Source: a virus. Taken from it: a stretch of 64,000 nt of DNA. The notes beneath the pieces are model-generated. The model was not told the origin of the DNA. It was given only the letters and a program-made list of their open reading frames with translations, and did no database searches. Shown one piece after another: positions 36,596 to 55,088 of this stretch. A program made the position numbers and the translations under genes. The first letter of the stretch is position 1. Every line of letters starts with the position of its first letter. The stretch lies in the IMG/VR virus record IMGVR_UViG_3300048912_000204. One strand, 5' to 3'.

Positions 36596-37039
36596 TCAGC
36601 TCTCGTAAATGCTGGATTCGGCTTCGACCACATACATGGCCTGAAAGGACGGCCGGTTGGCACTGTCCAGGGGCTGCCCGGCCGGGCTGCCCTGCGGGGT
36701 CGAGCCGAACCGGGAGATGTAGACGACCTGCTCACCACCGATGACCGGGCGCCCGGCCGTGATGATGACCTTGTCGATGTCCCGGGCCAGTTGCTCCGTC
36801 TCGGCGAACACGTCGTTCCACGTCGCCGCAGACAACCCCATCCGGCCAACGACCTTCACCTGAAAGGCGCGGGCCTCGATGTGACCGTCGACCTGCATGC
36901 TCCCGCCGCCGACCGGAGTCACCACGAGGTACTTCCGGGGCTCCGACGGCGGACCCACGGGCCCTTGGTAGATGACCGGCATCTCCTGGCCGTCCAGGGG
37001 CTGCTCTCCCAGCCAGTTCATGAAGTCTCTGGTGAGCAT
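36596..37039 (-). CDS. Tail terminator-like protein
   Basis: MLTRDF start overlapping the upstream stop; AFQVKVVG and LDSANRPSFQAMY motifs. Confidence 0.75.
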   Translation of the reverse strand: MLTRDFMNWLGEQPLDGQEMPVIYQGPVGPPSEPRKYLVVTPVGGGSMQVDGHIEARAFQVKVVGRMGLSAATWNDVFAETEQLARDIDKVIITAGRPVIGGEQVVYISRFGSTPQGSPAGQPLDSANRPSFQAMYVVEAESSIYES

Positions 37040-37493
37040 CAGAAGATCCCCAGCGCCTTCAGTTCCTGCTTGGCCCGCAGCTCGTCCTCGGTGAGGCGGT
37101 GCACGTTCGGCGGGCGGTGGTAGACCTGGTCGGTCCCGTCCAGCACTTCCGGGGAGCCCGACGCCCGCAGGTCGTGGAACTCCCGGGGGGCCAGCTCGTA
37201 GTACTCCAGGTTGAGGTCTTCCATGGACTCGGCCATCGCCCGGTGCATGGCCTCCCGGCCGTCCAGAATGGCGTCTGCGAGCTTGTGCAGGATCTCGGGG
37301 TTCTTGTTCATCAGCGCCGTGGCCAGAGCCAGCGCGATACCGCCCTGAGGGTGGTTGAACTCGATGCCGACTTCCTGGTAGTGAGCATAAACTGTATGCT
37401 AGGTCTGACCTGATCAACAGTGAGAGTGCCAGTTAAGTCGGTGGCACTCGCGTTGATCAGTTCGTCAATCCCTTCGGAGAAGGAATTACCCAT
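37039..37493 (-). CDS. Head-tail connector/tail-completion gene interrupted by a 17-nt out-of-frame gap (37390..37406); 145 aa if bypassed
   Basis: GGAGG RBS 8 nt before ATG 37493. Codons 1-29 end TVDQV and the motif resumes YAHYQE...NHPQGG in another frame after 17 nt. Confidence 0.7.
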
Positions 37494-38025
37494 GGACATC
37501 ACCTCCTCGAACTCCGCCGAACCCGCAACCGGTTCCAGCACCTGCGCTGTGGACGACTGCACGAGCGCCGTGTGGGCCCGCAAGATGTGCTCCCGCCATT
37601 ACCAAAACTGGCGGCTGTACGGCTCCCCACACGGCACTGGATGGCACGATCCCGACAACATCCGGGATCGTCGTATCGCGTTCTTCTGGGAGAACGTGAC
37701 CAAGCAGGGACCTGACGACTGTTGGCCCTGGAATCGCAAGCCCACGGCCAACGGTTACGGACAACTCCGCTGGCTGACAGGCACCGTTTCTGCGCATCGC
37801 GCCGCCTACGAGATCGCTTACGGACAACCCCCGAAGGCGATCGACGGCAAACGCGTGAACATAGACCACACCTGCCATGACCCGGCGGTATGCAAGCTGA
37901 AGACGGATTGTCCGCACCGGCTGTGCTGCAACCCGGCCCATCTGGAAGCTGTGACCTGGAGAGAGAATTTGGACCGAGGAGACACCAGTCGTCCCGGAAA
38001 CGGCGGCCTGCCCACGGCGCGATAG
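37492..38025 (+). mobile_element. Free-standing HNH homing endonuclease on the opposite strand
   Basis: CWPW...GYG...AHRAAYE...IDHTC...CCNPAHLEAVTWREN; N-terminal CAVDDC...MCSRHY. Confidence 0.88.
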
Positions 38026-38030
38026 CAACC

Positions 38031-38483
38031 TCACCACCACTCCCGGCTGAGGTTGAACTGCTCCAGGCTGAACATGGAGCCCTCGTAGGCGTTCTCCACG
38101 ACGGGGTTGTCCGTGCGCTGGGTGGACGCGGCGCCCGGGAGGGACAGCATGATTTCCCCGGTGCGGATCTTTTCCAGCGTCGCCATGGCGGACCCGGCCT
38201 TGACCTGCACCGGGTGGTTCTGCGCGATGGGGATGCTGCCGAGGTAAGTGATCGTGGCGTAGGACGCGGCAAGGTCACGCGAGAGCATGCGCACGATGGG
38301 CGGGACGGCGGAGGCCTCGATCGGCAGGGAGTATCGGGCGGTCAGGTAGCCGTCGATGAGCGCGTCGGCTTCATCGATCTTGTCCTGGATGTCCGGGTCC
38401 GGTAACACGGCGGCGCTGGTGGGGTCCATCAGCCCGCCGGAAGCGAGGGCCGTTCTGACGCTCGCTAACGTGGAGTACGACAT
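38031..38483 (-). CDS. Head-to-tail adaptor (Mu gp36/DUF1320-like)
   Basis: MSYST...EADALIDGYLTARYSLPI...LEKIRTGEIML. Confidence 0.8.
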   Translation of the reverse strand: MSYSTLASVRTALASGGLMDPTSAAVLPDPDIQDKIDEADALIDGYLTARYSLPIEASAVPPIVRMLSRDLAASYATITYLGSIPIAQNHPVQVKAGSAMATLEKIRTGEIMLSLPGAASTQRTDNPVVENAYEGSMFSLEQFNLSREWW

Positions 38484-38507
38484 TACGGCCCTCCCCTCTC
38501 GTAGGTG

Positions 38508-38807
38508 TTACTCGGCAGCCTTGGGGCGGCCCGGACGGCGCGCGGGGGCCTTCGGCTCCTCGGCCTTCTCCTCGGCCTTCTCCTCGGCCTTCTCCTCGGA
38601 CTCCTTCGGCCCCTCGGCCTCGGGCTCCGCGTCCGCGTCGGGCTCCACGATCTCGCCGACGCCGTTGCGCACGTGGTACTCCGCGATGGACTGGGGGAGC
38701 TTGATCGACTCGCCCGTCTGTACCGGAAGCAGGCTGACGCCCCGGTCGGGATGGAAGATCGACGTGTTCGGCCGGGTGACCCGGAACAGAACGTTCGCTT
38801 CTGCCAT
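38508..38807 (-). CDS. Small head-region protein with acidic/basic tail
   Basis: AAGGAG RBS; EEKA repeats; RRPGRPK end. Confidence 0.65.
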   Translation of the reverse strand: MAEANVLFRVTRPNTSIFHPDRGVSLLPVQTGESIKLPQSIAEYHVRNGVGEIVEPDADAEPEAEGPKESEEKAEEKAEEKAEEPKAPARRPGRPKAAE

Positions 38808-38912: not shown

Positions 38913-39749
38913 CTATTTCCCCGGGACGTACTTCTTACCATTCAGAATGTCCGACAGAAGCGGGGCCGAAATAGCCTCCTGCTGCGCGAAAGCCGTCCTC
39001 GTACCCCTGTGACCAGCAAACCTAGCCCGGATCTCCTCCGCCCGCTCCACCGTCATCTTCACCCGAGGCTTCCCACCCGACGGCACATAATCCGGATCCA
39101 CCCACGTCTGGTTCGCCAGCAGATACGTGATAGTCGCCTTCACCACGCCATACTCCGCCGCCAGTTCGCCGTGCCGGTAGTTGCCTGTCGCATACTTCGC
39201 CCGGATCTCCCGGACTAGGGGCCACGTCAACTCGGCGGCAGGATTGTTGTCTCCCCGGCGGTGCTCCCCGCCCAGGTTGCTGAGGGGGACATAAGCGGGG
39301 TCGTGCCACAGCTTGTTCTGGAGGACGTCCTGCACGGTAGACCGATCGACCTGGAACCGGGCCGCCAAGTCGGCCTGCGTCCACTTGCGGGTGGCGAACA
39401 GTTCGCGCAACCACGTGGCATCCGTGCGCGACAGAGCGGTGGTGCCGTTGATGACGCGGTCGTCCGACTGTTCAGCAGCGGTTCCCCAGCAGAGGTTGGA
39501 GAAGTGGTTGTTGAACGGGTTGCTGTCCCGGTGCCGTACCTGCGCCTCCGGGAAGGGCTTCGCCCCGTGGAACGCCTCGCAGACCAACGTGTGGACGCGC
39601 CGGGAGTACTTCTTGCCGTCGAGGTGCACGATCACTTGCAGGTAGCCGTGGTTGCCTATCACCGGCTTCACCACCGAGCGCGGGCCGGTGATCTGCCCGT
39701 CTTCGCGGATCCGGTACAGGGTGAACGTGGGGTGTGTGAGTTCCAGCAT
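38913..39749 (-). mobile_element. HNH homing endonuclease with three tandem HTH modules
   Basis: VHTLVCEAFHG...VRHRDSNPFNNHFSNLCWGT, followed by three repeats of the RELF/REIR...LAxxY/FxV...W motif. Confidence 0.85.
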
Positions 39750-39840: not shown

Positions 39841-40755
39841 CTAGATACCCGTTATCACACGTCCTGCCTTCGGCTGGTCGAGGAAGATCGCCGACTGGCG
39901 GACGACGTTGCAGCGCCACGTCTCGTTCGTGGAGTTGTGCTCCAGCGGCGTGACGTCAAGGGCGCGCTCGTCGGCGATGCCGCCGATGGTGCCCGCCTCC
40001 AGGAGGATCGCGCTGTTGGTCGGCACGCGCCACGACTTGACGACGCGGAACTGACCGAAGAGCAGGCCCGGCAGGGACAGCTTGTCGGCGGACGCGGTGC
40101 GGTCCGAGCCGACGAAGTACTTGTTCATGTCCGAGTTGAGCGCCAGGTCCATCGCCCGCGCGTGGTGCAGGATCAGGGTGTTCGGCTCGAAGCCGAACTT
40201 GGCCACGCCGGTCTGGTTCGTGGTCTCCGCGTCGGCGAGCTGGATGGCCAGCATCGCGTTCGCCAGGGTCGAGCGGACGTCCGTGGCGGTCGCCCACGCG
40301 GTGCCGGAGGCGGTCGACGCGAGGCCCGCGATGGCCTGGGCCAGGAACGCGTCCTCCCAGGCGGCCTTCATCGAGTTCACGACCTGCGTGATCGACGTGT
40401 TGACCCTGTCCATGTCATTCCTGCGCCGCATCTCTTCGGTGAACTCGATACCGAAGGCCCGCTTGATGGTGCGCGCGGCCTTGCCGATGCCGAGGTTCGC
40501 CGTGATCAGCGGGATCTCGCCGCCTTCAGCGACCACCGAGGGGCCGCCGTTGGCGTAGAGCGGCGTGGACTCGTTGTACAGGACGACGCCGCTGGGGACG
40601 TCCTGTACCTTGCGTAACACCGTGTCGGTGATGAACTGCTGGTCGGCCAGGGAGAGGATCCTCTCCTTGATGACCGCCGGGCGCTTCAGCAGGGTGTTGA
40701 CTGTGAGGCGGTAGCCGTCGTTGCTCGAAACGGTTCCGACCGTGGTCTGAGGCAT
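39841..40755 (-). CDS. Major capsid protein
   Basis: 304 aa after the scaffold and decoration genes; VAEGGEIP...KRAFGIEFTEEM HK97-fold pattern. Confidence 0.88.
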   Translation of the reverse strand: MPQTTVGTVSSNDGYRLTVNTLLKRPAVIKERILSLADQQFITDTVLRKVQDVPSGVVLYNESTPLYANGGPSVVAEGGEIPLITANLGIGKAARTIKRAFGIEFTEEMRRRNDMDRVNTSITQVVNSMKAAWEDAFLAQAIAGLASTASGTAWATATDVRSTLANAMLAIQLADAETTNQTGVAKFGFEPNTLILHHARAMDLALNSDMNKYFVGSDRTASADKLSLPGLLFGQFRVVKSWRVPTNSAILLEAGTIGGIADERALDVTPLEHNSTNETWRCNVVRQSAIFLDQPKAGRVITGI

Positions 40756-41285: not shown

Positions 41286-42884
41286 TCAGTAGTCGTACTG
41301 CTCGCCCCAGAGGGAGGCGAGCTTCTTGTCTTCCTGGGCCGCCAGGGCTTCGACGTCGTCGCGGTCCGGGGAGTAGCTGTGACCCCGTTCACGGGCGAGG
41401 TCGATGTAACCCGTGGCGGAGTCGAGGAGCTGCCGCACAACGGCTGCTGCGTCCACGGTCTCGATGCCGCCGATCGCGTTGGAGAACTCCAACGTGGCTG
41501 CGGGTCCGGCCAGCAGGACCGGACGGGCCAGGTCGACCAGCGCGGCCGGGACGCCCTTGCGGACGTAGTCGGCCTTGAGGCTGTCGAACTGCTGCGCGGC
41601 GAGCTGGGACTGAAGGACAGCCACCTGGTTGGACAGGGCGACGACCTCGGGGCCCGCCTCGTTGGACAGGGAGACCGCTCCGGCTCCGACCAGCTCGCGG
41701 GATTCGGCCGGGGCCTCCTCCTGGACGGCTGCCGCCTGCTCTTCAGCGATGGCGGCGGCCTCTTCGGATCCGGCGGCCTGTGCGGCAGCGTCCTTGGCCT
41801 CGGCCTCGGCCCACAGCTTGGCCATCTCCTCGTCAGAGAAGCCTTCCAGGGAGTCGTCCTCCCCGAGCGTGGGGTCTTCGGTGCCCAGGCCGCTGTTGAA
41901 GTCGCCGGAGGCCAGGCGTTCGACCAGTTCGTCGTCCGTCGGCTCGGCCGTAACCTCGGCGACGGCCTCGGTCTCCTCGGAGACGGTCTCTTCGGCGGTG
42001 GCCTCGGTCTCGTCGGTGTTCTCCGCGCCGGTCTCGGTGTCGAGGCCCAGTTCGGCGGCCAGCTCGTCCAGTTCGGCGTCCGAGAGGGCTTCGACGGCGG
42101 CGGCGATGTCCTCCTCGGAGGGGATCCCGGCCTCTGCTTCGGCGTCGGCGAGGAAGTCGGCTTCACCCGGCTCTTCGATGAGTTCGTCGTCGTCCACCTC
42201 GGCGGTGGCGGTTTCGTCGGTGTCGAAGGCGGAGCCGAAGATTTCCAGCTCGTCGTCCGTCATTCCGAGGGCGTCCAGCGCTTCGGGGGTCATTCCGGCA
42301 GCCGTGGCCACCTGCTGTAAAAGGTCGGCACGTGTGGCCATGTGCTCCAACTCCTCGTAAGAGGTTGCGGACAGGTCGATCACGTTTTCCGCCGGACCTC
42401 CGTTGGACAGCGCCACCTCTTCCCAGGTGCCGAGTCCTGGAATGACCGGGTCTAACGTGCCCAGAACATGCTGAAGCGCCCGGGGGAAATGTTTCCCGTC
42501 CGAGCGCTGGTAGTTTTCGAGGATGCGGGCGGACACGCCTAACTTCGGGTTCTCGTCCAGAACCTTGGCTGCGTCCGGGGTGACCTGGAAGACGGCGTAC
42601 AGGCCGTCTTCATCGACCTCTACTGACTTGACCTCGCCACGGAACCGCTCGGGGTCGAGGGTGTGGGAGTTGTTGTCGGGGGCCATCATGAAGGCCACCT
42701 GGTCGTAGGCGCCCTGATGGAAGGAGTTCGCCAGGTCGGTGAGGTAGGCGTCATCGAAGCGGATTTTGCGGCCCTTGTAGTTGATCGTGGCCTTCGGGAG
42801 GATCCTCTTGCGATACACCTTCTGGGACAGCGCGATGGCGGCACCGTCGTCCTGAGGGGACAACAGTAATTCGCTCTCGGGCAT
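41286..42884 (-). CDS. Mu gpI-like prohead protease fused to acidic scaffold
   Basis: N-terminal protease (H in NSHT, GVSA serine, LQHVLGTLDPVIPGL) followed by a very acidic coiled-coil scaffold region. Confidence 0.82.
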   Translation of the reverse strand: MPESELLLSPQDDGAAIALSQKVYRKRILPKATINYKGRKIRFDDAYLTDLANSFHQGAYDQVAFMMAPDNNSHTLDPERFRGEVKSVEVDEDGLYAVFQVTPDAAKVLDENPKLGVSARILENYQRSDGKHFPRALQHVLGTLDPVIPGLGTWEEVALSNGGPAENVIDLSATSYEELEHMATRADLLQQVATAAGMTPEALDALGMTDDELEIFGSAFDTDETATAEVDDDELIEEPGEADFLADAEAEAGIPSEEDIAAAVEALSDAELDELAAELGLDTETGAENTDETEATAEETVSEETEAVAEVTAEPTDDELVERLASGDFNSGLGTEDPTLGEDDSLEGFSDEEMAKLWAEAEAKDAAAQAAGSEEAAAIAEEQAAAVQEEAPAESRELVGAGAVSLSNEAGPEVVALSNQVAVLQSQLAAQQFDSLKADYVRKGVPAALVDLARPVLLAGPAATLEFSNAIGGIETVDAAAVVRQLLDSATGYIDLARERGHSYSPDRDDVEALAAQEDKKLASLWGEQYDY

Positions 42885-47548: not shown

Positions 47549-50500
47549 CTAATCCCATTCGTCGGTGGGGACGATCTCCACGACGATGTAGCGCTTGCCG
47601 CTGTACGGCTTGGTTCCGTCCGGCGGGGACGCCTGGTCCGAGACCACCCGGTACTTGGTGCCGCGCGGCAGCAGGATCTCCTGCTCGTGGGAGAACTTGG
47701 ATCCCGTCGCGTAGTTGGCGTCGATGACCTTGTGCCCCTTGGGGATGCGGACTTCCATCCACACGTTGCCGCTGAAGGCGTTCTTGTCCTTGGCCGTCGA
47801 ACCGTACGCCAGGTCCTGGTAGACGTTGCCGGGGTCCATCGGCGGCGGGAAGTCCGGGAACTGGCCGTTGGTGCCCATCTTGCGGACCGTGACGAGGTCG
47901 TGGGCCAGCGGCGGCGCCTGCCGGAACGCGTCGTCCATGTGCTTGATGGTGTCGTCCCAGTCACCGCCCGTGGCCCCGACCGGCGGCGTGATCATGGTGC
48001 CGTCGTAGTCGAAGTGGCCGCGAAGCTGACCGTTGATCTCCGAGTGCTCGTGACCCGTGTACGTGTACACGGCGGACGACGCCTTGCCCTTGGGCTTCCA
48101 GCCGTTGCCGATGTCCACACCGTTGGTCGCGGCCGTGTACCCGGCGGCGTGTGCCCCGGCGAACTGCGTCTTGGTGTGCGCCAGGACCGCGTCTTCGTCG
48201 CCCGCCTCGGCGGCCGTCATCCCCTTGGGGACCGCCTTGGCCGGGTCGAAGGACGCCGGATCGAACGGCGAGCTGTAGTGCGCGTCCCAGTCCTTCTTCG
48301 CCTGCTTGTACAGGGCGATCTGCGCCGGGGTCGCGTTCGGGCCGTGGGCCTGGTCGTACAGCTTCTTCAGCAGTACCGCGTTCGCCTTCTTGGTGATACC
48401 CAGGCCGGTGTACTTGACCTCCGGAGCCGTCACCACGTCGGGCGAAAGACCCTGGCTCTTGAGGTACGTCTTCGGCGAGTTCTGGGCCTGCGCGATGTCC
48501 AGCGTGGACGCGCCCGCCTTCTCGGCGGCTTCCTTGAGGTCGATGGACTTGTCATAGTCCCAGTGGTCACTGTTCTGCGGCAGGTTGTGCTCGGCCAGGG
48601 CCTTGAGCGCCGCCTGCTTGGCGGAGAGCGAACCGGTACCGGACGGTGCCGCCGCAGCCGCAGCCGTCGCCGGGTTGTTCTGCTTGTCCAGTTCGGCCTG
48701 GGCCTCGGTGTTCCAGTGCTTGTTGATGACGCCCTGCTTGAAGTCAGCGAACGCCTGCGGGTTCTCGTTCTTCCACTTGGCGAACTCCTCCTTCGTGAAG
48801 TTCTTGCCGCCGTAGTTCTTGGCCATCCACTCGGCGGCGAGCTTGGCCTCCTTCTGCGTCTTGAACTTGTGCGAGCCCATCTTCATGCCGTCGGCCTGCG
48901 TCACCGACCAGCCGGAGCCACCGAGGGCCTTGTGGACCACGAGGTTCTTGGGACCGGCCACGCCCTGGGACATGTGCGTGTTGCCGTCGGCGTCCTTGAC
49001 CCCGTGCTCCACCTTGGACCACTTGGCCTTCGGCTTGAACGGGTCCGTCTTCGGGCCGGACGGGGCCGCCGGAGCCGACGCGTCCGCCTCAGGGGCCTTC
49101 TTCTCCGCCGGAGCAGCCGCGCTCTCCTTGGCCTTCAGCGCCTTCAGCGTCTCGTCCGACTTGTAGTACGCCGCGTGGATCTCGTCGGGGGTGGCCCCGG
49201 CGTTGATGGCGGCGTTCTCCAGCTTCTCGGACGTCTGGTGGTTCCAGTCGGCGGTGTTGTCGTCGTGCTCGTGCGCGGCGAGCGCCTTGAGCGCCTTCTC
49301 CTTCTCCGACAGGCCCTGGGGCGCCGGAGTAGGTGCAGAGGACTTGGAGACCTTGTCCAGGAACGCCTTCGGGTTCTGGATGGCGGCGATGACTTCCTTG
49401 GGGTCCGCGCCCAGGTCGATGGCCTTCTGCTTCAGGGTCGTGTATTCGCCGGGCTCCCACTCTTCCCCGGAGGCCATCTTCTCGGCCATGGTCTTGATCA
49501 CGGCGTCCTTCGCCGACAGACCGGAGTCCTTCGCAGAAGGCGACGGGGCCGAGGGGCTGTTGGCGAGGAAGGCGTCCGGGTCCTTGACCACGGAGGTGAT
49601 TTCCGCCTTCGTGGCGCCCGCCGCGAGAGCCTTCGACTTTGCGACCTTGTAGTCGGTCTCGTTCCAGTCGTTGTCATCGATCTTCATCATCTCGGCGATG
49701 GCCTTGAGCGCGGCGTCCTTCTCCGCCGAACCGCCGGAACCGGCCTCCGGGGCATCGGCAGCCTTGGCCGCCTTCTGCGCCGGAGCAGCGCCCTGCTTGC
49801 CCTTGTCGGGCAGGTCGTCGTAGAGCTTCTGGAAGTCCTTGCCCAGGCTGTTCTTGTGGGCAACGATCTTGTCGAGGAACTTCTCCTCGGTGTCGACGCC
49901 GCCCGGGAACTTGTGGCCGCTCGCGAGGGCCTGCTTGGCGTACGGGGCGAAGAGCCGCTTGAACTCCTCGTCCGGCATGTCCTGGATTGCCTTGATCGTT
50001 TTGGCGAACTCGTTGTCCCCGGACGGGTCCGGGAGCTGGATCTTGCCTTCCTTGGCAGCCTGCCACAGGGCGGGGTACACGGCCGAGTGCGCGTTCGGGC
50101 CGTACGTGGTCAGCGGGTCGCCCTTGGACTTGCCGCCGTCGCCCTTGTACGGGTCGCCGTTGGAGGCGCCCACGGTGTACTTGAACGCCTGGCCCTGGTC
50201 GATCGACATGAGGCCGGTCGACGGGGACTTGATCCACTGGCCGTTGTGGGAGTCCTGGTTGCCGGTGGCGTAGTCCAGCACCTGGTGCTGGAGCATCTTC
50301 ATGATGTCCTCGGGGGGCATCTTCGCGGCCATGTCGGCGTTGAACTTGTAGCCCGGGAACGCGTCCTCGGCGCCGGGGATCATGCCCTGGAGGTGACCGT
50401 CCTTGGTCTTCACGAACACCGGGGTCGGCAGGCCGACCTTGCGGTGCAGCGCGGCGACGGCGGGGTCAAGGCTGCGGGAGTACTCGTCCGTCTTCGCCAG

Positions 50501-52642
50501 CCACAGGTTCCCGTCCTCGTCCTTCATCAGCTTGCTGCCGTGGGAACCGAGCGTCTTGCCGGTGTACGTCAGCTTGCCGACCGGCTTGAGAACCTTGCCG
50601 TCGTCGGCCGCGTCGACCTTCTTGACCGGAGCGGACGGAGCCTCGGCGGCCTTCTTGGTCGCGGCGGCGTCGGCCGCGTCACCGTGGTGCTGGACCAGGT
50701 TCTTGAACTTGTTGACGGCCCAGTCCTTGGGCTCGTCCTTGTCCTGCTCCGCCTTGAGGGCCTTCGCAGCCGCCTGACCGGCCGCCTGGTGGTCCTTGTG
50801 GTCCCCGGTGATCTCGGCGATGGACGACAGCGCGTTCGCCTTCATGGCGGGGCTGTCCGCCTTGTCGGCGAGTTCCGCGACCTTCTTGTAGTTCTCGATC
50901 GCCTTGTCTTTGTCCCCGGCCGTCAGGGCGTCGTCAGCGGCGTTGAACGCCTGCCCGGCCTGCTGGAGCGCCTGCGACTTCTCCGACTCGGCCTTGGCGG
51001 CAGCAGTGGCCTGCTCGCCGTGCTGGGTCGCCTTGGCCATGTGGCCCTGGGCGGCCTCCTTGTGGTCCGCCGCCAGGCCCTGGAAGCCCGCGTCCAAGGC
51101 GGCCTTCTCCGCGTTGGAGTGCAGCAGGGCCGCTTCCAGGTGCTTGGCGTTCAGCGTGTCGTCGCTGGCCTTGGCGTAGGTCGCCTCGTGCACCTCGGAC
51201 GTCTTGGCGTGCGCCTTCTTGCCGTGGGCGTCGTACGCCTGCATCTTCGCGAGCGCTTCGGCGTTCTTCTTGTCGACCTCGGCGGCCTTGGCCTTGTACG
51301 AGGCGGCGTTCGCCTTGTGGTCCTCGGCCTCGTCGTGCAGACCGGCGGCCTTCGCAGCCTGGTGCGCCTTCTCGTACTTGGCGGCGGCGTCCTTGAACGC
51401 GGTCGACGCCGAACCCGAGTCCCCCAGCGCGTGGCCCTTGTTGGCGGCCTCGTCGGCGGCCTTGGCGTGCTTGGCGATCTCGGCCTGGGCCGCCTTCTGC
51501 TTGGCCTCGTGCTCGTCGTGCTGCTTCTGGAGCCCGGCCGCGATCTCCGCGTGCTTGGCCTCGTGCTGCTTGTGCTCGTTGACGGACTCGTCGTTGCCGA
51601 TCTGCCCGTGCGCGTTCGCAGCCTGCCCGTGCGCCTGGGCGGCCTGGTTGTGCGCGTGCGCCTGCGCGGCCAGCGGGGTGTCACCCTCCTCGCTGGCAAT
51701 CGACGCGCTCTTGGACTTCTTGTAGGCGCCGTCCGACATGGTGGCGGCGGCCTTGTCCAGTGAGTCGTGCGTCTTCTGCTGGTTCTCGGCGATCTTCTCG
51801 TGCTTGGCCACCGCTCCCGCGTGGGCCTCGCCGACGAACTTGTTCCCGGCCTCCTCGTTGGCGTGCTGCGCGTTCAGGTGCGCGGCAGCAGCCTTCGTGT
51901 GCAGCTCGGCGGCCTGCTTCGGCGTGTGGTTGCCGCCCTTGATCGAGGCGGTGAGTTCGTTCGCCTCGGCCGTGAGCTTGGTCGCCTTGGCCTTGGCGTC
52001 CGCCAGCTTCTTGGCCGCCGCAGCCTTCTCGGCCTCCAGCGCCTTGGCCGCGTCCTCCTTCGCACCCTGCTCCAGCTTCGTCGCCTTCGAGGCGTGGATC
52101 GCGGAGTGCGCGGAGTGCGTGAGGACACCCGACTTCAGGCCGTCCTTGCCCATGCCCTGGAAGTGGTGGGCGGCGTCGGCGTGCTGAGTCGCCGCGACCT
52201 TGTGGGCCGCCGCCAGAACGGCCTTGGAAGCGCCGGACTCTTCGAGCTTGTGCACCATGTTGGTGGCGCGCTCGGCCTTCTGGACGGCTGCCTTCGCCGC
52301 TTCCTGCTTGGCCGCGACACCCGCCGCGCCCTTCTTGACCTCGGCCTCCCAGTCCGCCTTGGAGGCGTACCGGTTGACGGCCTTGAAGGAGATCTTGCCG
52401 TCGGCGCCCTTGACGAAGTGGCCGGTGGTGTGACCGCCGGAGATGTGGCCGTGCTGACGGGCGAGACCGCCGCCGGACAGACCACGGGAGGGGATCAGGG
52501 GGTTGATCAAGATCCATCCGTGGCGGTATCTAAATGCAAGGGCGCCAGCGGGATTTTTCGAGAAATCTAAGGTGTGAGCGTCAACAACCCTCACATTCTT
52601 AGGTAACACCCCGACGAACGCTAACTCATATTCCACGTTCAC
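47549..52642 (-). CDS. 1697-aa multidomain head-associated protein: Ala/Lys/His-rich stalk, PI3/4-kinase/HipA-like kinase domain, helical repeats, C-terminal VIP2-like ADP-ribosyltransferase
   Basis: Kinase: WLAK...DYATGNQDSHNGQW...IDQG (about 49800-50560). ART: TVRK, YGSTA, HEQEILLPRG (about 47550-48070). Confidence 0.75.
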   Translation of the reverse strand: MNVEYELAFVGVLPKNVRVVDAHTLDFSKNPAGALAFRYRHGWILINPLIPSRGLSGGGLARQHGHISGGHTTGHFVKGADGKISFKAVNRYASKADWEAEVKKGAAGVAAKQEAAKAAVQKAERATNMVHKLEESGASKAVLAAAHKVAATQHADAAHHFQGMGKDGLKSGVLTHSAHSAIHASKATKLEQGAKEDAAKALEAEKAAAAKKLADAKAKATKLTAEANELTASIKGGNHTPKQAAELHTKAAAAHLNAQHANEEAGNKFVGEAHAGAVAKHEKIAENQQKTHDSLDKAAATMSDGAYKKSKSASIASEEGDTPLAAQAHAHNQAAQAHGQAANAHGQIGNDESVNEHKQHEAKHAEIAAGLQKQHDEHEAKQKAAQAEIAKHAKAADEAANKGHALGDSGSASTAFKDAAAKYEKAHQAAKAAGLHDEAEDHKANAASYKAKAAEVDKKNAEALAKMQAYDAHGKKAHAKTSEVHEATYAKASDDTLNAKHLEAALLHSNAEKAALDAGFQGLAADHKEAAQGHMAKATQHGEQATAAAKAESEKSQALQQAGQAFNAADDALTAGDKDKAIENYKKVAELADKADSPAMKANALSSIAEITGDHKDHQAAGQAAAKALKAEQDKDEPKDWAVNKFKNLVQHHGDAADAAATKKAAEAPSAPVKKVDAADDGKVLKPVGKLTYTGKTLGSHGSKLMKDEDGNLWLAKTDEYSRSLDPAVAALHRKVGLPTPVFVKTKDGHLQGMIPGAEDAFPGYKFNADMAAKMPPEDIMKMLQHQVLDYATGNQDSHNGQWIKSPSTGLMSIDQGQAFKYTVGASNGDPYKGDGGKSKGDPLTTYGPNAHSAVYPALWQAAKEGKIQLPDPSGDNEFAKTIKAIQDMPDEEFKRLFAPYAKQALASGHKFPGGVDTEEKFLDKIVAHKNSLGKDFQKLYDDLPDKGKQGAAPAQKAAKAADAPEAGSGGSAEKDAALKAIAEMMKIDDNDWNETDYKVAKSKALAAGATKAEITSVVKDPDAFLANSPSAPSPSAKDSGLSAKDAVIKTMAEKMASGEEWEPGEYTTLKQKAIDLGADPKEVIAAIQNPKAFLDKVSKSSAPTPAPQGLSEKEKALKALAAHEHDDNTADWNHQTSEKLENAAINAGATPDEIHAAYYKSDETLKALKAKESAAAPAEKKAPEADASAPAAPSGPKTDPFKPKAKWSKVEHGVKDADGNTHMSQGVAGPKNLVVHKALGGSGWSVTQADGMKMGSHKFKTQKEAKLAAEWMAKNYGGKNFTKEEFAKWKNENPQAFADFKQGVINKHWNTEAQAELDKQNNPATAAAAAAPSGTGSLSAKQAALKALAEHNLPQNSDHWDYDKSIDLKEAAEKAGASTLDIAQAQNSPKTYLKSQGLSPDVVTAPEVKYTGLGITKKANAVLLKKLYDQAHGPNATPAQIALYKQAKKDWDAHYSSPFDPASFDPAKAVPKGMTAAEAGDEDAVLAHTKTQFAGAHAAGYTAATNGVDIGNGWKPKGKASSAVYTYTGHEHSEINGQLRGHFDYDGTMITPPVGATGGDWDDTIKHMDDAFRQAPPLAHDLVTVRKMGTNGQFPDFPPPMDPGNVYQDLAYGSTAKDKNAFSGNVWMEVRIPKGHKVIDANYATGSKFSHEQEILLPRGTKYRVVSDQASPPDGTKPYSGKRYIVVEIVPTDEWD

Positions 52643-53195: not shown

Positions 53196-55088
53196 TCAGA
53201 GGCACTTTTTGCCCTTCTGACGCCGCTTCTTCTGCGCCTTGATCGCCGCATCCGCCAGGTAGCGCTTCGGATACTTCGTGGTCAGGCTGTTGACTGTGAG
53301 CCGTGCCCCGTCCTGGGAACTCCCGGTGGGTACGGTGACCTGCTCCGATGCCATGGGCTGGGACAGGTTGACGTTGTTGCGGAGGTTGTCCTTGATCTCT
53401 TCCTGCTGGGCCTCGTAGTGGTCCAGCAGCCGGACCTGGGTCGGGGTTAGCGGCCGACCGGCCTTCTTGTCCGCGAGGGCCTGACGGGTGGCGTCGGAGA
53501 TCAGCTTCTGCTTGGCCTTGGCCTTCGCCGCCTTCTCCTTCGCCGCCTGCTTCTGCGCCCGGAGCTTGGCCACCTCCGCCTTCTTCTTGGCCATCTCCTT
53601 GGCGTGCGCGGCCTTCTTGGCGGCAGCCGCCTTGGCCCGCGCCGCCCGCTTGGCCTCGGCCTCGTGGTGCTTCTTGGCGGAAGCGGCCTTCTTCGATGCC
53701 TTCTTGGCGTCGGCGGTGGCCTTGTTCTTGTACGCCTGGGCGATGGCCGCCTTGGTGGCGTCGGTGTGACCGGTCATGTCCTTGATCTCCTGCGCAGACT
53801 TGTCTTTCTGCGAGGGACCGACGGGGTTGCCGTTCTTGTCGACGGGGACCCAGTTGTGTTTCCAGCCGACGGCGCCCGGGGGGAGCTGGTGCTTGCCGTG
53901 CGGGTTGTCCTTCGGCTTCTTGTCCTTGGCCTTCGGCTTGTGCGCCTTCTCCGGCCGGGGGCCGGAGGATCCCGCGATATCCGCCGGGACGGCCAGGTCG
54001 ATCGCAGAGGAGCCGTCCAGGACGGCTCGCAGGAACGTCATCGGCTGGGACAACGTCACCTCCTCCCCCGGGTCGGATGCTGCGTGGGTAACGGTGACCA
54101 CGGGGAACTCTCCTTCGTGTGAGACGTGTGTGACGTGCAGGCGGGTGCCGCGCGGCAGGACGGTTTCGTCTCCCCGGACGGGGATGATCGGGGCGCCCTT
54201 GCGGCCTTGGATGCGGAAGAGAACCTTTTTGCCGGTCTCGTGTCCGCGTTCGTGCATGTAGTACTCCGCCACGTCCCGGGAGAACGCGGCGGATCCGTAG
54301 CCCTTGTCGTGCAGGACGGAGCCGGGCGTGAGCGCGGCGATCTGGTCGTCGGTGAGGGAGGCCCCGCGCCACAGGTCGGCGTCCCGGCTCAGGGACGCCT
54401 TGGCGGCCACCGAGTCGAGTCCCTTGTTACGGGCCTCCTCCTCGGCGTCCAGGGCTTCCCCGTTGCGCAGCTTGCGGTTGATCCGCAGCGTGTCCTTGTC
54501 GAAGGCCACGTAGTCGTTGACGGCCGCGTGGTCACTCTTGCCCAGAACGGCTTCCCGCAGATGGGTGTTGCCGCCCGGCAGGGAGTCTGTGTCGGCGTCC
54601 GATACGGCCTTGCCGTGCACGGCGACGTTGGCCCAACTGCCCTTGTGGTCAACGGTCGGGTAGGGGCGGTCTTCGCCCTCTTCCTCTTCGGCCATGGCCA
54701 GCAGAGCCTTCATGGCGTCCATGGCCGACCACTTGCCGTCCGGGGTGCGGGGCTCGTCGGGGTTGAAGTTCGCCAGCTTGACCGTACGGCCCTTGTTCGG
54801 TGTCGCGTGGGCCCTGGCCTTGGAGGCTTCCCAGTCGGCCAGGGCGGCGGATGCGGCAGCGCGTACTTCGGGGCGGACGTTGCCGCGCCCGGAGGCCCAG
54901 TTTTTGATGGTGCCGAGGGCCGTGGCGATGGCCCGGGACTTGTCCATGCCCCGCTTGGTCATCAGGCTGTGCGCGATGTTTTGCACGTACGGCGGAAGGC
55001 TCAGGGAGCGGTCCCCGAAGAGACCGGGTCCTCCCGGCTTCCCGAGCGGGTGCGGTGTGACCGCTAACGCCGCTGTCTCGGCACTCAT
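53196..55088 (-). CDS. 630-aa head-associated protein with VIP2-like ADP-ribosyltransferase domain
   Basis: INRKLR...LWRG...GYGSAA...GDETVLPRGTRL (about 54120-54540); FNPDEPRTPDGKW and GWKHNWVPV motifs; Lys/Ala-rich C-terminus. Confidence 0.75.
   Translation of the reverse strand: MSAETAALAVTPHPLGKPGGPGLFGDRSLSLPPYVQNIAHSLMTKRGMDKSRAIATALGTIKNWASGRGNVRPEVRAAASAALADWEASKARAHATPNKGRTVKLANFNPDEPRTPDGKWSAMDAMKALLAMAEEEEGEDRPYPTVDHKGSWANVAVHGKAVSDADTDSLPGGNTHLREAVLGKSDHAAVNDYVAFDKDTLRINRKLRNGEALDAEEEARNKGLDSVAAKASLSRDADLWRGASLTDDQIAALTPGSVLHDKGYGSAAFSRDVAEYYMHERGHETGKKVLFRIQGRKGAPIIPVRGDETVLPRGTRLHVTHVSHEGEFPVVTVTHAASDPGEEVTLSQPMTFLRAVLDGSSAIDLAVPADIAGSSGPRPEKAHKPKAKDKKPKDNPHGKHQLPPGAVGWKHNWVPVDKNGNPVGPSQKDKSAQEIKDMTGHTDATKAAIAQAYKNKATADAKKASKKAASAKKHHEAEAKRAARAKAAAAKKAAHAKEMAKKKAEVAKLRAQKQAAKEKAAKAKAKQKLISDATRQALADKKAGRPLTPTQVRLLDHYEAQQEEIKDNLRNNVNLSQPMASEQVTVPTGSSQDGARLTVNSLTTKYPKRYLADAAIKAQKKRRQKGKKCL

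Follow-up and report, generated by a model that had tools for sequence, protein, structure and literature searches.

What becomes of a conserved phage gene when a short run of nucleotides breaks its reading frame right beside an HNH endonuclease gene, and what put that run there? The question is raised by the IMG/VR virus record IMGVR_UViG_3300048912_000204, of which a stretch of 64,000 nucleotides (nt), called the window throughout, was analysed. On its minus strand, 17 nt (37406..37390) interrupt a 145-codon gene inside its most conserved motif, …VDQV/YAHYQE…, the DNA over the junction being GAT CAG GTC AGA CCT AGC ATA CA GTT TAT GCT CAC. Frame A starts at the ATG at 37493 with a GAGGAGG Shine-Dalgarno sequence in front, reads MGNSFSEGIDELINASATDLTGTLTVDQV and then runs through 31 unrelated codons to the TGA at 37313-37311. 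Frame B is closed by the TAG at 37401-37399, after which it reads YAHYQEVGIEFNHPQGG… for 116 codons up to the stop at 37039. Excision of the 17 nt joins 29 and 116 codons and restores the 145-codon family protein exactly; every element of sequence and frame given in the preliminary description of this locus was thus reproduced on the minus strand. Judging from sequence comparisons, we consider it probable that the run is the micro-insert of an HNH homing cassette and would be skipped by translational bypassing, from GUC to GUU. Bypassing and homing had already been proposed in that description and are now supported by independent comparative evidence (linkage, alleles and selection), from which we infer the hop and its efficiency, as well as the target and cleavage specificity of the HNH.

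The interrupted motif is conserved across the family. The gene is matched in 11 Streptomyces phages by tblastn, and gp19 (148 amino acids, aa) of the Streptomyces phages Stuff and Marky carries …VVVDQVYAKYQHERMDLKHPNGG… uninterrupted. DQ[VILM]YA, also read as VDQ[VIL]YAxYQ, is contiguous without exception in 20 close relatives, which are 71-85% identical, and in 34 of greater distance; the motif VDQVYAHYQ, already named as contiguous when the locus was first described, is therefore genuine, being contiguous in ~55 of the ~55 intact homologs inspected. These homologs measure 142-174 aa and have Q27, Y29, A30, G44 and G45 as invariant residues, and the same gene position is conserved in more than 130 phage sequences. 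In the AlphaFold model of an intact relative (predicted local distance difference test, pLDDT, 90), the helix and strand of residues 4-25 and the helix of residues 30-35 lie within one fold.

Whether the gap accompanies the endonuclease, a question posed from the start, was answered by searching from the HNH side, which brought out six further loci. Homologs of the HNH, 46-58% identical to it, occupy the same site in six more distinct phage contigs, antisense and right after the adaptor gene, and all six contigs have an out-of-frame insert in the same nine-codon stretch of the neighbouring gene, with displacements of 5, 8, 8, 8, 8 and 10 nt. All seven inserts fall in one 27-nt stretch, where the DNA of the gene is most conserved. 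Counted as distinct loci, the gene is gapped in 7/7 cases with the HNH on its 5' side vs 0/7 cases without it (Fisher exact p ~3e-4). This strict linkage and the analogous sister inserts are observed directly. Among the HNH-less relatives, L003 and L006-L010 (gene 71-85% identical) lack this HNH as well as the larger one nearby and have the adaptor gene abutting the intact gene, and in L016 the HNH lies two genes away and the gene is intact. A further 82 loci found with the family profile gave an adjacent HNH in 0/82 and a split gene in 0/82, a biased control, as the scans used the intact motif as their pattern and were hence blind to alleles gapped at DQV/Y.

The codons around the inserts follow a common arrangement. 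In six of the seven alleles, the final triplet of the insert is a synonym of the codon just ahead of the insert (GTC/GTT, GTC/GTA, ATA/ATA twice, ATT/ATC and GAA/GAG), the pair GTC/GTT being the match of take-off and landing codons that had first been pointed out in the window. These pairs co-vary between lineages (ATA/ATA vs ATT/ATC), and in the six synonymous alleles the landing codon is the earliest cognate triplet downstream, in any frame. Five alleles open the insert with TTA, one with TGA, and the window with AGA. The rarity earlier attributed to AGA, CCT and ATA is borne out by codon usage in 36 window genes (13,944 codons), where AGA is the rarest sense codon with three occurrences (0.22 per 1000) and ATA and CCT stand at 0.79 and 2.0 per 1000. 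At the remaining allele, L012 (2270-2300, minus strand), TGAAT directly follows TAT, its UGA being a stop like that of T4 gene 60, and the AAT ahead of the resume codon does not encode Tyr; an alternative hop between matched CAG codons 11 nt apart would lose two conserved residues.

The gapped DNA is real. Logan contigs from runs X1 (2017) and X3 (2025) have 0 differences from the window over 36800-38585, a 455-nt contig of run X8, a run without a flag as possible source, agrees with 37134-37588 at every position, and over 5.3 kb identity is 100% for the JGI contig L004 and 99.8% for the ENA contig L005. The contigs from several samples contain the gapped form alone, with no joints. An assembly error, listed among the first alternatives, is thus ruled out, since independent metagenome assemblies carry the identical gapped sequence. 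The 90-aa open reading frame (ORF) that gene finders call from the ATG at 37311-37309 is present on 11 contigs, the longest of 126 kb, and the relatives are on contigs of 125-130 kb. The window is part of a large soil actinophage (~126 kb) that recurs unchanged in rhizosphere and root metagenomes over 8 years; given the identical sequence in independent assemblies of 2017-2025, the phage carrying the gap circulates and is presumably viable. Megablast of the region against GenBank phages gave no match, and a metagenome scan with the C-terminal protein as first query confirmed nothing.

According to the bypass reading, a mobile HNH cassette would have inserted itself where the adaptor gene borders on this gene of the neck module, and would comprise three parts: the HNH gene in antisense, the first 29 codons in a diverged copy, and a micro-insert that is short and AT-rich. 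The stretch encoding VDQVYAxYQHE would be the HNH target in phages that lack the HNH, and the insert would shield its carrier from the cassette's enzyme. As the gene would be needed, translation would leave the insert out. A ribosome with peptidyl-transfer RNA-Val on the GUC would stall, as the codon in its aminoacyl (A) site, AGA, is the rarest of the phage; the transfer RNA (tRNA) would then unpair, the messenger RNA would slide by 17 nt, and re-pairing with GUU would let decoding resume at UAU, the product being the normal 145-aa protein (positions in Table 1). The composition assumed for the cassette finds some echo in nucleotide identities to relatives, which are 0.59-0.68 in segment 1, the 29 codons before the gap, vs 0.75-0.83 in the next 87 nt, with no such step between HNH-less relatives. 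This greater divergence modestly supports segment 1 as a part of the transferred cassette, like the diverged homologous region of MobA. More speculatively, the AT-rich insert may also couple how much neck protein is made to the availability of a rare tRNA (for AGA or UUA), and it may provide a TANNNT element resembling a -10 box for the antisense HNH gene.

Several points weigh against bypassing and temper its probability. The window allele is an outlier, with 17 nt vs 5-10 nt, AGA vs UUA, and its occurrence in one near-clonal lineage. Folding around its gap does not differ significantly from shuffled sequences (z = +1.1 over 61 nt and -1.5 over 101 nt), and neither GGAG nor GAGG, as Shine-Dalgarno-like elements, occurs in the gap or just before it. 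In L012 a cognate landing codon is absent. Rare codons are expected in any AT-rich insert of a genome with 66% guanine plus cytosine (GC), and the matched flanking codons could be due in part to the origin of the insert, such as a duplication during repair. Moreover, an ATG overlaps the frame-A stop at a column where close relatives mostly have Leu, which fits reinitiation, and a termination-reinitiation product may exist as a by-product or as the alternative. Finally, both the neck function and the essentiality of the protein are presumptive. As to signals in the RNA, the inverted repeat AGGTC-A-GACCT described across the junction is present in the DNA, but it gains no statistical backing as an RNA structure, local folding being no better than in shuffles; one 4-bp hairpin (AGGU/ACCU) and one 6-bp hairpin occur at the gap. 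Structure as a signal common to the seven gaps was rejected, as all of them are indistinguishable from shuffles except L013 (z = -2.5). Rfam at E values up to 1 gave no match at the gap and just two sub-threshold small-RNA matches ~600 nt away.

It is unlikely, though it deserves the fullest weighing among the alternatives, that the gene is dead, the 17 nt being a repair scar or homing by-product in a dispensable gene, or the phage defective, so that nothing decodes across the gap. The insert is out of frame, no classical recoding signals were found, and the window allele belongs to a single near-clonal lineage of unmeasurable age. The gap also resembles its flanks copied in inverted form (AGGTC-A-GACCT; AGCATA-CAGTT-TATGCT), as error-prone break repair could yield. 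However, the conserved position of the gene in so many phages and the persistence of this one, unchanged in many samples over 8 years, speak against a dispensable gene or a defective phage. All seven HNH loci are frame-broken, yet each allele gives a full-length family member once its insert is excised, and 116-137 open family-like codons follow the insert, with the exception of L176, where 96 such codons precede a second break of 1 nt. At that break (L176:1230-1290, minus strand), the DNA reads GGC GAG TCA CCT ATG, one base out of frame with the …V T Y D R P P… expected from the family; possible causes are an assembly error of 1 nt, the contig being of long-read style, and another site of recoding.

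Selection in the lineages with one common insert adds to this argument. L096, L176 and L178 have the same TTAGC insert, whereas their HNH genes have diverged to 70-76% aa identity, with synonymous divergence (dS) of ~1.7, which is saturated, and a ratio of nonsynonymous divergence (dN) to dS of ~0.12. Measured separately for the 29-31 codons upstream of the gap and the first 25 downstream, their structural genes give dS from ~0.7 to saturation, mostly at least 1, and dN/dS of ~0.1-0.5, mostly 0.2-0.3. Purifying selection on the gapped genes is thus observed directly, and as the insert is shared despite saturated synonymous sites, these substitution patterns indicate that the gapped arrangement is old, with both segments under protein-level constraint in their correct frames. 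Constraint on both sides of a shared insert is hard to reconcile with a dead gene, or with restart at a downstream Met.

Such a restart is the core of a less probable alternative, in which the gene is split into a 60-aa frame-A product and a 90-aa product reinitiated at the TGATG (37313-37309), the two cooperating or the second acting alone. The overlap of the frame-A stop with the frame-B ATG and the calling of the 90-aa ORF by gene finders are as this would have it, and the window has Met at a column where the 20 close relatives have mostly Leu, Trp in two and Met in none. Met does occur there, however, in intact homologs of the more distant set. The restart product would be without the most conserved block, YAxYQ…HPxGG, to which all five invariant residues (Q27, Y29, A30, G44, G45) belong, and the AlphaFold model places residues 1-48 within the fold. 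Furthermore, the first Met of the other gapped alleles stands 9 to ~50 codons past the gap, in non-equivalent places (9, 20 and ~50 codons downstream in L096, L176 and L178), and the frame-B codons between gap and first Met are under purifying selection, as L096 vs L176 shows after the gap with dN of 0.22 and saturated dS.

A programmed -1 (or +2) frameshift within the insert, which would add five or six residues as …DQV RPSIQ x YAHYQ…, appears improbable. Lengths of 17, 8 and 5 nt are all 2 mod 3, such that most alleles would be brought back into frame by a -1 shift, and in the window the shift could take place from 37398 on. Against this, no X XXY YYZ heptamer occurs between 37398 and 37389, no codon competent for re-pairing lies between the TAG at 37401-37399 and the TAT at 37389, and there is no downstream structure. 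The L013 insert, at the same site, has 10 nt (1 mod 3) and would need the opposite shift. More broadly, three inserts that occupy one and the same site, after DQ[VI], have sequence in common (TAGCATA is common to the window and L096/L178, ATACAGT to the window and L013) and measure 8, 10 and 17 nt, leading to different frames; as these lengths differ by non-multiples of three, no single fixed frameshift decodes them all. The extra residues would, in addition, land in an invariant motif that is free of insertions there in the ~55 intact homologs. Removal of the 17 nt before translation, by RNA cleavage and ligation or as a mini-intron, or gapped DNA as one of several genome forms, is highly improbable, and of little probability even when pooled with any other explanation, as 5-17 nt are far under any self-splicing intron, Rfam has no match at the gap, the contigs of several samples are gapped only, without joints, and synonymous flanks with a rare or stop first codon are predicted by translation-level skipping, not by splicing.

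The preferred reading, a bypassed insert of a homing cassette, also concerns the neighbourhood of the split gene, the features of which are collected in Table 1 along with the junctions of the seven alleles.

Table 1. Features of the split-gene locus, in window positions, and junctions of the gapped alleles.
Feature	Position	Strand	Description
Segment 1 of split gene	37407..37493	-	29 codons MGNSF…TVDQV; aligns with N-termini of intact homologs
Proposed take-off codon GTC	37409-37407	-	Last codon of segment 1
17-nt coding gap AGACCTAGCATACA GTT	37390..37406	-	Not found in any HNH-less relative
AGA, would-be A-site codon	37406-37404	-	First gap codon
TAG closing frame B	37401-37399	-	Inside gap
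Proposed landing codon GTT	37392-37390	-	Earliest GUN triplet downstream, any frame
TAT, would-be resume codon	37389-37387	-	Start of segment 2
Segment 2	37039..37389	-	116 codons + stop, YAHYQEVGIEFNHPQGG…LGIF*; 71-85% identical to 20 intact relatives
TGATG overlap	37309..37313	-	Frame-A stop TGA 37313-37311 overlapping frame-B ATG 37311-37309
Free-standing HNH endonuclease gene, 177 aa	37492..38025	+	Antisense to split gene; fills space from adaptor stop to split-gene start
Head-tail adaptor, Mu Gp36-like	38031..38483	-	Upstream neighbour; fixes cassette synteny
Second, larger HNH, 278 aa	38913-39749	-	HNH_3 and helix-turn-helix (HTH) domains; between major capsid gene and 99-aa gene
Major capsid protein	39841-40755	-	Structural module
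Junction, window			GTC AGACCTAGCATACA GTT TAT; 17 nt
Junction, L013/L014			GTC TTATACA GTA TAC; 10 nt
Junction, L096			ATA TTAGC ATA TAC; 8 nt
Junction, L178/L179			ATA TTAGC ATA TAT; 8 nt
Junction, L176/L177			ATT TTAGC ATC TAT; 8 nt
Junction, L011			(…YQHE) GAA TTACA GAG GGC; 8 nt
Junction, L012			(…YAQY) TAT TGAAT CAG; 5 nt

The minus-strand order is major capsid gene, the larger HNH, 99-aa gene, adaptor gene, antisense HNH, split gene, small genes, major-tail region and tape measure. The label of head-tail connector in the preliminary description is supported by this synteny but not by homology, as the protein has no Pfam or PHROG match that would give a function and no fold match: Foldseek returned nothing from the PDB at E 1e-3 or better and its own family alone from BFVD. 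A proteasome-like sandwich, the best result of a VIA wide search (Z 5.2), was not credible as a structural match. A tblastn search of the 64-kb window found no second intact copy of the gene, and a crude search there for other coding-like regions without a start codon returned only the split-gene site.

The antisense HNH gene, reported as such from the first, is intact, matching PHROG HNH families at E 1e-22 and HNH_3 with 24.5 bits, just below the Pfam cut-off of 24.8, and it keeps the catalytic motif, the columns of DH..CCNPAH..N being invariant in 21 HNH homologs. Its start codon overlaps that of the split gene in CCATGG (37491-37494). The overlap of starts as CATG, read from HNH start coordinates, recurs at least at L096 ~1936-1940, L176:1617-1620 and L178 ~1524-1527, which suggests that it belongs to the mobile unit; with overlapping starts, each ribosome-binding site comes to lie inside the other gene. 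A scan of 36900-38600 for sigma-70 promoters and terminators found nothing. By eye, the inserts of 5/7 alleles, those of the window, L013, L096, L176 and L178, hold TANNNT hexamers on the HNH strand (TATGCT, TAAACT, TAATAT, TAAAAT and TATACT), ~70-100 nt upstream of the HNH start and, in the window, within 37381-37420 (+); they are candidate -10 elements, none of them called by the sigma-70 scan. The second HNH (38913-39749) is also variably present, as all that L003 (1550-2050) retains is a piece similar to the HTH part at its C-terminus, and its site is empty in L007 and L008. The genes flanking this second HNH look intact, and no micro-gap was seen. As for TTA, the 13,944 window codons include 28, clustered in the first ~35 codons of structural genes (for example, codons 6 and 27 of 38031-38483, codon 6 of 41286-42884, codons 7, 13 and 25 of 47549-52642 and codon 8 of 53196-55088); the supply of UUA-reading tRNA could gate late-gene translation in this phage.

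Compared with known systems, the locus is best described, by analogy, as resembling T4 MobA/gene 60 in its logic and phiHau3 in its geometry and mechanism. The bypass of T4 gene 60 is said to have been connected with the HNH homing endonuclease MobA by Bonocora et al. in 2011. It belongs to a mobile MobA element, the insert protecting against nicking by MobA, and some MobA clades carry AGG, a rare codon for Arg, instead of a stop after the take-off codon (clade 5) (bioRxiv 10.1101/2022.08.31.505936). The likeness lies in the arrangement, no sequence homology to the gene 60 cassette having come to notice: in both systems a free-standing HNH adjoins a gene of high conservation, the downstream segment contains a non-coding insert not far from its beginning, the codons of take-off and landing match, a stop or rare Arg codon follows take-off (AGG in clade 5, AGA here), a diverged copy of host-gene sequence lies between endonuclease and insert, and the cassette is present or absent among close relatives. 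In contrast, the gap of gene 60 has 50 nt and the inserts here 5-17 nt, the HNH here is antisense with overlapping start codons, and the host gene is not split into two genes. In addition, no take-off stem-loop or Shine-Dalgarno element is evident here as in gene 60, where a nascent-peptide signal also takes part, and the setting is a neck-module gene of high-GC actinophages, compared to a topoisomerase of T4-like myoviruses.

A short UUA-mediated bypass in the terminase of Streptomyces phage phiHau3 was reportedly described by Smith et al. in 2013. That gene has two 10-nt non-coding blocks led by UUA, similar blocks are known from two prophages, StrepC.1 and S. catenulae (7-nt block) (PMC10732093; PMC5009743), and bypassing in genes of this type is backed by a junction peptide from E. 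coli (PMC10732093). Read directly, the phiHau3 sites (L262; 2590-2650 and 2900-2960) are GGC TTACTCC GGT and TCT TTAACGG TCC. As here, a sense take-off codon is followed by a rare codon, a few nucleotides and a synonymous landing codon, after which decoding resumes, and GTC TTATACA GTA of L013 has exactly this geometry; TTA opens the gap in 5/7 alleles here, and in both cases the hosts are high-GC actinobacteria. The window gap differs in opening with AGA and spanning 17 nt, its sisters L013, L096, L176, L178 and L011 having TTA and 8-10 nt, and the gene is another one. In the phiHau3 papers the role proposed is regulatory, as a sensor of bldA, and homing endonucleases go unmentioned (PMC10732093). 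The only annotated HNH in the phiHau3 region (gp1) lies 1.4 kb upstream and does not adjoin the terminase gene, whereas the gaps of the present family occur strictly together with a neighbouring HNH.

Two further systems bear on the hop itself. The Byps elements of Magnusiomyces capitatus mitochondria reportedly measure 27-55 nt. As summarised in the source cited, they are short mobile inserts in conserved genes that ribosomes skip (Lang et al. 2014; PMC5009743). On that account, an unused or rare codon follows take-off and the match of the landing codon is at times imperfect, which also holds for L012 here; unlike the single site of the 64-kb window, Byps are mitochondrial, number dozens per genome and, in the same summary, come with no associated endonuclease gene. 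In "hungry codon" bypassing in E. coli (Gallant & Lindsley 1998), as outlined in later accounts, peptidyl-tRNA slides to a matching codon up to tens of nucleotides on, with no elaborate signals (PMC5009743; bioRxiv 10.1101/2022.08.31.505936), which makes a 17-nt hop mechanistically feasible. As those outlines present it, however, this is a low-efficiency laboratory phenomenon under starvation and not an evolved, conserved arrangement.

To our knowledge, very few systems show programmed bypassing of good efficiency, and its connection with homing endonucleases is known essentially from T4 MobA/gene 60 and homologs alone. The present locus offers a second, apparently unrelated cassette of endonuclease plus bypass, and it links the UUA bypass observed in phiHau3 to the biology of mobile elements. 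It also provides a natural allelic series, in which the gap measures 5, 8, 10 or 17 nt, the take-off codons number four, the A site would receive UUA, AGA or UGA, and elaborate signals like those of gene 60 are not evident, which makes the minimal requirements of hopping directly testable, as is the idea that bypass inserts evolve as immunity to their own homing enzyme. For annotators, short frame breaks beside actinophage HNH genes may be functional and not errors or pseudogenes. More tentatively, with the odds leaning slightly against it, the HNHs of high-GC actinophages might as a routine shield their carriers with hungry-codon micro-inserts of 5-17 nt, set into a conserved target gene, over which ribosomes would hop. 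If so, short-range programmed bypassing would be a recurrent and evolvable partner of homing, with an origin independent of T4 MobA/gene 60, the gaps of phiHau3 type would be explained, and database entries labelled 'split' or 'truncated' would conceal further cases.

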